UHGV virus genome: UHGV-0105960
From: a virus
DNA length: 10,683 nt
Strand: one strand, 5' to 3'
In this document: positions 8,118 to 9,460 of the stretch, piece after piece
Numbering within the stretch: position 1 is the stretch's first letter
Layout: every line of letters starts with the position of its first letter
The notes under the pieces: model-generated
Databases searched by the model: none
The model's input: the letters and a program-made list of their open reading frames with translations, nothing else
Told to the model about the DNA's origin: nothing
Position numbers and translations under genes: made by a program

Positions 8118-8124
8118 TGAAATG

Positions 8125-8149
8125 AAAAAGGCCGCGAAATAGCGCAGCC
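8125..8149 (-). terminator. Intrinsic terminator (minus strand) immediately upstream of the tRNA pair
   Basis: On the minus strand: GGCUGCG-CUAUUU-CGCGGCC (7-bp stem with one U-G pair, 6-nt loop) followed by UUUUUCAUUU. Confidence 0.55.
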
Positions 8150-8182
8150 CTTAATGCTTTATGGTTTTGCCTGAATTAGGCG

Positions 8183-8209
8183 AAAAAAAGCCCGCTCAGA
8201 GGGGCGGGC
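8183..8209 (-). terminator. Intrinsic terminator (minus strand), candidate tR'-like late terminator
   Basis: On the minus strand: GCCCGC...GCGGGC GC-rich 6-bp stem (8190..8195 / 8204..8209) followed by a run of 7 U (8189..8183). Confidence 0.6.
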
Positions 8210-8487
8210 AGAAGGTAGGAAATACTGATTCTTCAACGGTTCGAGGCGCACCTAATAGTCCGAGCTTCCGATTTACCAGGAGAGCGCTCGTTTTCCGTTA
8301 CTACCTTTTAAACATAGCTGGAGAAGCCGAAACGGCAACCCCACTATCAAATAGCTTATGTAGCATTGCATTATGGTGCCGGGTGCCTCCCGGTGAGCAT
8401 GTCCCAGTCGACATGGCCCGCGCTGCATTTACAGATCACTGTAAGTGACTGGTCGCCCCTCCGCATAGGGGGATTCACCACACGAAT

Positions 8488-8517
8488 AGATTAACAACAT
8501 GTTAATTTTCTGGTCAA
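8488..8517 (-). promoter_or_regulatory. Candidate sigma70 late promoter (pR'-like) downstream of Q
   Basis: On the minus strand: -35 TTGACC (8517..8512), 18-bp spacer, -10 TAATCT (8493..8488). The -10 match is weak; this is a sequence-only prediction. Confidence 0.25.
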
Positions 8518-8573
8518 TAAGATATAAGCAAATGATGACATGCAGTTTTCTTATTGCTGAGTAACTTCAATCT

Positions 8574-8641
8574 GGTTCAGGGCTCTGCGCGGAAGGGCTT
8601 TGACGTGTCGTGCAGCACGTCTCTACCCAAGAGCCCTGACC
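8574..8641. repeat. 68-nt nested imperfect palindrome (outer 12-bp arms with one bulge, inner 6-bp GACGTG/CACGTC stem)
   Basis: GGTTCAGGGCTCT (8574..8586) pairs with AGAGCCCTGACC (8630..8641); inner GACGTG (8602..8607) pairs with CACGTC (8616..8621). ORF-free; lies between the Q stop and the candidate late promoter. Confidence 0.5.
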
Positions 8642-8654
8642 GGATCGCAGGCAT

Positions 8655-8681
8655 AAAAAAGCCCCGGCGGATTGCCGAGGC
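8655..8681 (-). terminator. Intrinsic terminator (minus strand) about 90 nt downstream of the Q stop
   Basis: On the minus strand: GCCUCGGC-AAUCC-GCCGGGGC hairpin (8 bp with one mismatch) followed by UUUUUU (8660..8655). Confidence 0.5.
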
Positions 8682-8770
8682 TAATTTTACAAACTGGTAT
8701 ATGACTATCATCTTCATGCCGCCACTTAAAGTTAAGGCAGCATATCAAAGTAGACTCAAATATGACGTAT

Positions 8771-9460
8771 TTAATTGACTTTTGCAAGACCCTGCTGCGA
8801 AAAAGTCGCTTTTTGTTGTGATCGTGTTCTCACAGCACAGAGAAGAGAGTCGCTATCAAGCCGCTTAAAAATGGCGCACATAGCCCGCCAGTAATCAGCG
8901 TAGTTATGGCACCAGTTATCAGGCTTAACGCCACACAGGGCTGCAAGGTCCTGGTGCTGATATACATACTTACCCGCCAGCTCTGCTTTCACGTCCTGTG
9001 CCGCCAGCCATATCAGTTTCTTCAGCCGCTCCATCGTCTTGCCGGCCACTTTCTTAGCGCCGAGTTGATCACGGAATTCTTCCCATGCCCACTGTGTTAT
9101 CGCTACCTGATACTCAAAGCGGATATTGTCGCTGTAGTTCCACAGCAACCAGGATTTCTGGTGGTCTTCCAGCGACAGGAGGGCGCGGCGCCAGCTGGCT
9201 GTCGAGTATTCAACGGGCAGAACGAGAGCGATTGAGGAACCCTTAGCGCGGGACTGGCTGCCGCTCATCGGCGGTCCATCCGGGTTAACCATTTTTTGCT
9301 TCACCTCGCTATACACCTTCTTCCGGCCACGGCTGCGCGCCGTAGCGGTAAATTGCGCGTTCTCTGCAAAAGCTACCAGTTGCCCTTTCGTCGCACCACT
9401 CAGATCGGCGGTGGCCACTATCAGCTGCTGGCGAACAAATTCCAAGTATTGAGCTGTCAT
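8771..9460 (-). CDS. Late-gene antitermination protein Q-like (229 aa)
   Basis: ATG at 9460 with GGGAGAAG Shine-Dalgarno. Canonical lambdoid position: after rusA and the ylcG-position ORF, before the terminator/tRNA region and lysis genes. Size resembles the larger Q-like proteins of cryptic E. coli prophages. Family assigned by synteny and recall only. Confidence 0.6.
   Translation of the reverse strand: MTAQYLEFVRQQLIVATADLSGATKGQLVAFAENAQFTATARSRGRKKVYSEVKQKMVNPDGPPMSGSQSRAKGSSIALVLPVEYSTASWRRALLSLEDHQKSWLLWNYSDNIRFEYQVAITQWAWEEFRDQLGAKKVAGKTMERLKKLIWLAAQDVKAELAGKYVYQHQDLAALCGVKPDNWCHNYADYWRAMCAIFKRLDSDSLLCAVRTRSQQKATFSQQGLAKVN

Follow-up and report, generated by a model that had tools for sequence, protein, structure and literature searches.

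The tRNA cluster of phage T4 encodes, besides its tRNAs, two small stable RNAs of another kind, species 1 and species 2 (rnaC/rnaD), which have tRNA-like ends and are matured by the tRNA-processing enzymes; to our knowledge, no function has been established for either. Hairpins of a different type, irregular duplexes of 20–30 bp that are cut by RNase III, lie between functional units of polycistronic phage transcripts, as in the early mRNA of T7 and in the N leader and sib regions of lambda, and at T7 sites of the R1.1 type it is the irregularities in the duplex that steer the enzyme. Phage tRNAs themselves are thought to replace depleted host tRNAs.

In phages L, Sf6 and 933W, canonical tRNAs occupy a slot in the late operon between pR'/tR' and the lysis genes, and for phage L the excision of these tRNAs from the late mRNA has been stated to be unknown (PMC8022706). 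In the account given in PMC4176162, several polycistronic tRNA transcripts of E. coli are separated by RNase P. The E. coli enzyme also cleaves hairpins that end in a 3' RCCA (PMC11143913, PMC10731613), and the natural non-tRNA substrates named in these two reports are pre-4.5S RNA, the C4 RNA of P1/P7 and the M3 RNA of phi80, in which a continuous helix replaces the T-loop; two of these three hairpins, C4 and M3, are phage RNAs. Structured RNAs at the start of antiterminated phage operons, finally, are represented by lambda 6S RNA/qut and by HK022 put.

Here we analyse a hairpin in the late operon of a lambdoid prophage, contained in a stretch of 10,683 nucleotides of the virus genome UHGV-0105960 (the window), in which a preliminary description made from the letters alone had noticed a nested palindrome of 68 nt at 8574–8641. 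The element resembles species 1 and 2 of T4 in that it would be a non-tRNA RNA with tRNA-like ends, set in register within a phage tRNA cluster; the T4 RNAs, however, belong to a lytic phage, are about 120–140 nt long, take another position in their cluster and show no homology to it. It occupies the same site as the tRNA slot of phages L, Sf6 and 933W, but whereas the units found there are canonical tRNAs, the element has no cloverleaf and always comes first. Like the RNase III hairpins of T7 and lambda, it is an irregular hairpin between units of a polycistronic phage transcript; those hairpins, in contrast, have neither an RCCA tail nor a tRNA register, and the duplex described here is the more interrupted one. 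With lambda 6S RNA/qut and HK022 put it shares the position at the start of an antiterminated operon, but these act before the terminator and are system-specific, whereas the present element lies past tR' and is common to four Q families. With the non-tRNA substrates of RNase P, as far as the cited reports portray them (pre-4.5S/SRP, C4 antisense and M3 RNA), it has in common a long irregular hairpin, a continuous helix in place of the T-loop and a 3' RCCA-like tail. It differs from them in that there is no sequence relationship, that positions -1 and -2 pair with the CC of the tail and the trailer pairs with the leader (an anti-determinant), and that cleavage is here only predicted.

Results

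The window covers the late-control and lysis/packaging region of a lambdoid prophage of Klebsiella type, with its genes on the minus strand, and its best phage match is Klebsiella phage 2 LV-2017 (98%). In the direction of transcription, the gene for RusA (10019–9594, minus) and that for an antiterminator Q of 229 aa (8771..9460, minus; PF06323, E = 1.1e-79; phrog_304) precede those for holin, lysozyme, Rz, small terminase and portal, which lie beyond Q on the same strand. Between Q and holin, the minus strand carries in this order a putative late promoter, a terminator, the palindrome, an STnc100 RNA, two terminators, tRNA-Asn and tRNA-Arg. The putative pR' (TTGCAA-17 nt-CATATT; 8758..8786, minus) overlaps the stop codon of Q; it scores 8/12, which is below the threshold of the promoter scan, and is kept in loci with the same Q family. 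Past this promoter come ATATGCT, a -10-like sequence, and a hairpin of the leader (AUGCUGCC...GGCGGCAU). The intrinsic terminator, of tR' type, consists of a 9-bp G+C-rich stem and a U-run (8651..8682, minus; reported by the terminator scan as 8682–8660) and ends 10 nt upstream of an 80-nt hairpin module that includes the palindrome. The palindrome had been described as lying between the terminator and the late promoter; this placement has to be corrected, as the minus-strand order of Q, putative pR', terminator and palindrome puts it past the terminator.

Downstream of the hairpin, a module of about 450 nt (8118–8567, minus) contains an STnc100-family small RNA (RF02076, 79.7 bits; 8510–8316, minus), a promoter-like TTGACC near 8515 and terminators at 8209–8190 and 8152–8127. 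In the window this module is inserted between the hairpin and tRNA-Asn; elsewhere, tRNA-Asn begins 6 nt past the hairpin. In a 2026 preprint, STnc100 is linked to the PasD small RNAs, which occur downstream of Q. The two tRNA genes called by ARAGORN are tRNA-Asn(GTT) (8117–8043, minus) and tRNA-Arg(TCT) (8037–7961, minus), of which the former shows, by eye, a U·U mismatch at acceptor position 4:69 and is still called a tRNA by both ARAGORN and Rfam.

Alignments, junctions and the match of a covariance model delimit the whole conserved module to 80 nt (8568..8647, minus), reading 5'-CGAUCCGG-UCAGGGCUCU...AGAGCCCUGA-ACCA-GAUUG-3'. From base to top, it begins with a lower stem of 5 bp formed by CGAUC (8643..8647, minus) and the trailer GAUUG (8568..8572, minus); in loci linked to tRNAs, GAUU of this trailer is the spacer and its last G is +1 of the next tRNA. 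A C·A mismatch separates the lower stem from two GG:CC pairs, in which the invariant G(-1)G(-2) (8640..8641, minus) pairs in the precursor with the CC of the RCCA tail (8573..8576, minus; defined by column counts). After one bulged base comes the outer, acceptor-like stem, a perfect inverted repeat of 10 bp between UCAGGGCUCU (8630..8639, minus) and AGAGCCCUGA (8577..8586, minus). An 8-nt one-sided bulge on the 3' side, UUCCGCGC (8587..8594, minus), leads to a middle stem of 4 bp (GGGU at 8625..8628, minus, with GCCC at 8595–8598), a 3x3 internal loop and the inner hairpin (8602..8621, minus) with a 6-bp stem, GACGUG/CACGUC, and an 8-nt loop, CUGCACGA (8615–8608). Among relatives the bulge varies in sequence and in length (7–10 nt) around a CG(C) core that is kept in the alignment, and the As at 8622 and 8600 in the internal loop are invariant.

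The two arms of the palindrome had been recognised correctly: the outer repeat of 12 bp with one bulge corresponds to the perfect 10 bp at 8577–8586/8630–8639, the bulge at 8576 and GG 8574–8575/CC 8640–8641, and the inner stem, GACGTG 8602–8607 with CACGTC 8616–8621, is indeed perfect. Its extent of 68 nt, however, falls short of the true structure, which further includes the lower stem (8643–8647/8568–8572) and the middle stem (8625–8628/8595–8598). Folded as RNA, an 86-nt stretch reaches -39.1 kcal/mol, compared with -25.1 +/- 3.2 kcal/mol for shuffled sequences (z = -4.4; 0 of 200 shuffles as good), which bears out the impression that the palindrome is beyond chance. RNAalifold independently yields the same helices, and a covariance model built from relatives scores 8656–8561 at 104 bits on the minus strand versus 28 bits on the plus strand. 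In the fold of the whole leader, three hairpins form independently of one another; neither a competing structure nor a different pairing that involves tR' appears, which makes an attenuator-type switch with tR' unlikely.

At least about 300 phage, prophage and metagenome loci carry the element, with 156 distinct sequence variants among the matches listed; they stem from prophages of Klebsiella, E. coli, Kluyvera and Raoultella, from HK620 and from a Lastavirus. By blastn, it was found in 42–46 phage records (Klebsiella prophage-derived phages; E. coli HK620 and HK633; Lastavirus LASTA, SJM3 and ZX1) and in 62 of 5,426 complete E. coli genomes, each with a single copy that carries no annotation. 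Pattern scans added at least 120 viral contigs and at least 120 metagenome contigs, and when one genome per species was scanned, genuine loci numbered only four, in Kluyvera and Raoultella, next to a single spurious match. The covariance model detects the element in 37 of 80 loci that were collected solely by way of their Q protein and form an unbiased sample. When more distant relatives were sought by blastn with the HK620-type copy, the same 42 phage records were returned. Matches in Pseudomonas and Vibrio cover only the terminator and were not retained as relatives, and what looked like a second copy in three loci came from an insufficiently strict regular expression, each phage locus having one true copy. 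The variants fall into two main haplotypes, between which recombinants occur. Because most of the loop and a portion of the inner stem were predetermined by the anchors used for retrieval, loop conservation was judged from the Q-anchored and flank-anchored sets only; in the Q-anchored set the apical loop has the near-invariant consensus CYGCACRA.

About 30 base pairs are kept across the 156 variants. In a set of 69 variants, 93.5% of cells hold standard pairs, versus 27–42% when the partners are slid by 1–3 columns, and 27 cells are changed on both sides, versus 10.4 +/- 2.8 in shuffles (0 of 500 reaching this value); the outer stem is paired in 97.5% of cells. Compensatory replacements among the 156 variants are found at 8634–8582 (G:C 120, A:U 12, G:U 13), 8627–8596 (G:C 130, A:U 22), 8620–8603 (A:U 130, G:C 7, with 17 G:U intermediates) and 8619–8604 (C:G 147, U:A 3), and 8621–8602 also shows replacement of one Watson-Crick pair by another. 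Pairs of the lower stem are kept in 140–156 of the 156 variants, with alternation of A:U and G:U at 8646–8569, while three pairs outside the lower stem are kept in only about 60% of the 69 variants. The covariation rests on 4–5 pairs, and independent events are few because the variants are closely related and recombine among themselves. Conservation across related phages, and RNA folding together with covariation, had been put forward as checks in the preliminary description; the palindrome is kept, with compensatory changes, and the same helices (RNAalifold) are obtained, with double changes at five pairs.

G:U pairs outnumber A·C combinations by 297 to 38 cells over the 156 variants when the minus strand is read (about 8:1; another count gave 134:18), which argues for selection on an RNA of this strand rather than on a DNA palindrome or a plus-strand RNA. 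Judged by this substitution pattern, the palindrome encodes a structured RNA whose strand, the minus strand, is also the sense strand of the late operon. A DNA-level element, be it an operator bound by a protein dimer or a site related to Q (a protein operator and a Q-utilisation-related element had both been considered initially), would account for the symmetry of the DNA and could draw on a 'putative qut' annotated alongside in HK620. It is contradicted by the G:U to A·C ratio together with the compensatory changes, by the distance of 43 bp between the arms, by the location past the terminator and by the association with four unrelated Q families and with a phage that has no Q nearby, and we regard it as hardly tenable.

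The open reading frame upstream of the element encodes, among the matches listed, members of four unrelated antiterminator families: PF06323 in 43 loci, PF06530 in 24, PF03589 (as in HK620) in 17 and phrog_753 in 11. The last of these comprises the protein in the Q position of Klebsiella phage Mulock (L002, 2683–3327) and of 10 other loci, which has 199–214 aa, is annotated as hypothetical and has no match in Pfam; given its match to phrog_753 ('Q-like', E = 3e-53), it may represent a further antiterminator family without a Pfam model. At least eight types of terminator hairpin precede the element, each ending about 10 nt before it, and at least 12 different modules follow it. With four Q families, at least eight terminators and at least 12 downstream modules, the element is not Q-specific. 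A qut/QBE element would lie at or just past pR', before tR', and belong to one Q family, whereas the hairpin lies past the terminator, follows four Q families and is present in a non-lambdoid Lastavirus; the initial suggestion of a Q-utilisation element is not upheld. The 'putative qut' of HK620 sits on the neighbouring terminator hairpin and not on the element.

The Lastavirus in question is LASTA (L003; MT251347, 2500–2700), a non-lambdoid phage of 62 kb, in which the element comes after the lysis genes with no Q nearby, accompanied by a pR'-like promoter and a terminator remnant and followed by tRNA-Arg(TCT). From this arrangement, the hairpin module appears to have moved between phage types. 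A recurrent downstream module with complementary ends, CACAACAGGTAAGAGCAT ... AGTGCTCTTTCCGKTGTGGTG, occurs in HK620 (L001, about 2140–2250) and in LASTA (about 2398–2500), and also directly past tR' in some loci without the hairpin; it may be a further structured RNA. The spacing of about 10 nt between terminator and hairpin has an exception in about nine loci among the matches listed, where about 270 nt of conserved sequence with no annotation, GGGCGGAAAATGTG...GCGAGAGTGTGGTTG, are inserted between tR' and the hairpin (L045, about 11000–11270; also L018 and L063). This insert has no match in Rfam and may be another non-coding RNA.

Comparison of the loci further revealed that homology between phages breaks exactly at the two ends of the element, past the upstream 'CUG' and past 'GAUU(G)'. 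In one metagenome contig (OIWP01001675.1; L248), just the 5' half is present, extending to the inner stem and giving way to unrelated sequence; by comparison of the sequences, this is a recombination or deletion junction inside the element. The idea of a recombination hotspot at a module boundary is borne out as a description, in that mosaic junctions between phages map to both ends; the constraints at the RNA level argue for conserved function as the cause and recombination as the consequence. The junctions most likely arise because a conserved functional RNA provides recombination with a stretch of shared sequence. A decayed tRNA gene, or a conserved linker for homologous recombination between modules, in either case without an RNA function of its own, would agree with these junctions (at both ends and once inside), with the recombinants between the two main haplotypes and with the position in a tRNA slot. 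We give it little credence, because compensatory and G:U changes, strongly asymmetric between the strands, preserve the pairing, because similarity to tRNAs is undetectable and because a pseudogene would not keep 30 pairs over 156 variants.

Next to the tRNA arrays, the 3' end of the element takes on a particular meaning. The outer stem reads 5'-UCAGGGC...GCCCUGA-3' and is followed by A-CCA (8576–8573), that is, an acceptor-type stem of at least 7 bp with discriminator and CCA. Position 8576, the bulged base in the place of the discriminator, is variable among the 156 variants (A 135, G 20, C 1); C8575 and C8574 are each C in 153 of 156, and A8573 is A in all 156 despite facing C in the C·A mismatch. 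On these counts, 8576–8573 is an RCCA, the signature of a tRNA 3' end. Among the matches listed, a tRNA gene begins 4 nt (Thr, Gly, Met) or 6 nt (Asn) past the RCCA in 56 of 122 distinct contexts (46%), and gaps between tRNAs within the same arrays measure 4–8 nt, mostly 5. A tRNA upstream of the element was found in none of the 156 loci among the matches listed, the element always being the first unit of its array; in Klebsiella phage Mulock, for example, the order is terminator, hairpin, Asn, Phe, Thr, Arg, holin. In related loci without the element, a tRNA stands directly past the same terminator leader ('...UUUCUG|G'), which indicates that the element occupies a tRNA slot. The hairpin is an optional accessory module of the late operon that fills the first tRNA slot directly past tR'. 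In the window and in HK620, it is not next to tRNAs. The minus strand, the RCCA tail and the link to tRNA arrays had escaped the preliminary description, which was right about the palindrome itself.

The element was not recognised as a tRNA by any of the programs applied. The Rfam tRNA model (RF00005) gives no match over the hairpin even at E <= 10, and ARAGORN, which calls only the Asn and Arg tRNAs in the window, leaves the hairpin uncalled at a lowered threshold and in its mitochondrial, armless and tmRNA modes. The hairpin has no T-loop, no D-arm and no 7-nt anticodon loop, so with no cloverleaf and both searches blank we rejected identity as a tRNA; mimicry of an anticodon loop was likewise rejected, the apical loop having 8 nt and the position of 'U33' varying between U and C. 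By its letters and pairing, the hairpin is not a tRNA but imitates the acceptor end of one, with a 10-bp stem, a purine and CCA.

Other identities were considered in turn. In Rfam 15, no family covers the hairpin at gathering thresholds, and at E <= 10 only noise appears (Atu_C4, 17 bits versus a cut-off of 80 bits). RefSeq annotates no feature under the 62 E. coli copies, nor is there one in the phage records inspected, and the literature on the late operons of HK620, epsilon34 and phage L does not mention the hairpin. The element is absent from described RNA families, and we found no published description of it in Rfam 15, RefSeq or the literature on these three late operons. It is not an intrinsic or second terminator: the terminator scan skips the palindrome, and there is no U-run, the hairpin being followed by ACCAGAUUGAAG. 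A dispersed repeat of REP or MITE type was dismissed on the basis of one copy in the window, a median of one place per E. coli genome, always chromosomal, and one copy per phage locus. Small open reading frames overlap the hairpin on both strands (8577–8717, minus; 8554–8778, plus); since upstream modules differ and the bulge has indels of 1–3 nt, the element is not coding. A resemblance to boxA (GCUCUU, 8633–8628) was set aside, as HK620-type copies have GACUUU and the motif is buried in the stem.

The anatomy of the hairpin fits the option, already listed in the preliminary description, of a putative RNA processing site. We propose that the palindrome may well encode a small RNA or a processing module of tRNA-like character, cut out by the enzymes that process tRNAs (RNase P and exonucleases), a reading that we hold with about even confidence. 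The element would be transcribed only by polymerase that reads through tR', in its Q-modified form. Its 3' end would be set in the manner of a tRNA, either by RNase P at +1 of the tRNA 4–6 nt further on or by RNase E in the GAUU spacer; from the known pathway, a cut by RNase P at +1 of an abutting tRNA would free the 3' end of the hairpin with a trailer of 4–6 nt, which exonucleases would trim back to the RCCA. On the 5' side, RNase P would cut before U8639, the predicted +1, and probably slowly, because G(-2)G(-1) and five further leader bases pair with the RCCA and the trailer. A stable RNA of about 67 nt would be released, and cleavage would also separate the leader and terminator hairpin from the downstream tRNAs and the late mRNA.

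How well the hairpin suits RNase P depends on the part considered. A substrate helix for this enzyme comprises about 12 bp and a 3' RCCA; the RCCA is present here, and the stem of 10 bp would have to stack across the 1 x 8-nt bulge onto the 4 bp above. RNase P further calls for unpaired positions -1 and -2, whereas here the invariant G(-2)G(-1) pairs with C74 and C75, and five leader-trailer pairs are added. Pairing of G(-2)G(-1) with RCC is an anti-determinant that makes cleavage about 10-fold slower (PMC10731613). The leader-trailer pairing of 7 bp, which is part of the conserved module, speaks against RNase P; a stem for RNase III, or a hairpin that is not processed, would be no less compatible with it. 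Moreover, loci without the element have tRNAs directly past the terminator, so it is not needed for processing of the array and is not simply a processing aid.

As an alternative, the element may be a processing hairpin for RNase III, whose cut would detach the tRNA array or the late mRNA from the pR' leader and its terminator, leaving a stable hairpin. The lower stem, GG:CC and the outer stem together give about 17 bp of near-continuous duplex, or about 30 bp with the upper stems, and the 5' extension CRAUCCGG, which is complementary to CCA-GAUUG, belongs to the conserved module, its pairs being kept in 140–156 of 156 variants. The conserved bulge and the C·A mismatch are reminiscent of the irregular positions that guide RNase III within long duplexes, and the same extended helix makes a poor substrate for RNase P. 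Cleavage by RNase III would, however, leave unexplained the exact RCCA, with its invariant unpaired A8573 and bulged purine, and the tRNA-like spacing of the next tRNA. A site for this enzyme would comprise about two turns of regular double-stranded RNA, whereas 5, 2 and 10 bp are observed with a mismatch and a bulge between them and with the upper stems past a large bulge; the uninterrupted duplex is short, and the three outermost pairs are unconserved. We regard this as the foremost alternative, with the extended, conserved pairing as its chief argument, and consider it unlikely.

Rather improbable, in our view, is a cis-acting structure that is not processed, such as a stabiliser at the 5' end of the antiterminated late transcript or a hairpin in it that binds a protein, with RCCA and spacing being incidental. 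Such a role would suit an element that is always the first structure past tR', that stands apart from tRNAs in HK620 and in the window, and that has a highly conserved apical loop. It does not account for a tRNA-like register that holds with four different tRNAs, and processing of an abutting tRNA by RNase P necessarily frees the 3' end of the hairpin.

Discussion

Excision in the manner of a tRNA remains our preferred reading of the hairpin, which behaves like a small gene in its own right, comparable to other optional cargo such as the tRNAs and STnc100. The near-invariant 8-nt loop CYGCACRA suggests a specific partner. Within the window, the complement of the loop, TCGTGCAG, occurs only as the opposite strand of the hairpin itself, which is no better than chance. 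As a speculative possibility, to which we assign a low probability, the RNA of about 67 nt would act in trans as a late tRNA mimic, a decoy or inhibitor of a host factor that reads tRNA ends or anticodon-like loops, or would itself be CCA-repaired or aminoacylated. Relevant to such a role would be the stacking of two helices, the free RCCA end and the invariance of the loop, and a defence toxin that cleaves tRNAs or modifies CCA ends is a conceivable target. If this were true, the mimic would be a complement to the phage tRNAs next to it and, like them, take part in the contest over defences that target tRNAs.

Between their late promoter and their lysis genes, temperate enterobacterial phages carry a variable cargo bay that holds tRNAs and STnc100, to which the element adds a widespread unannotated RNA. 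At a minimum, it qualifies as a clear candidate for a new RNA family, and within lambdoid mosaics it marks a joint of recombination. It also gives a concrete handle on a question raised for P22-like phages, namely whether and how the tRNAs of the late operon leave the late transcript (PMC8022706).
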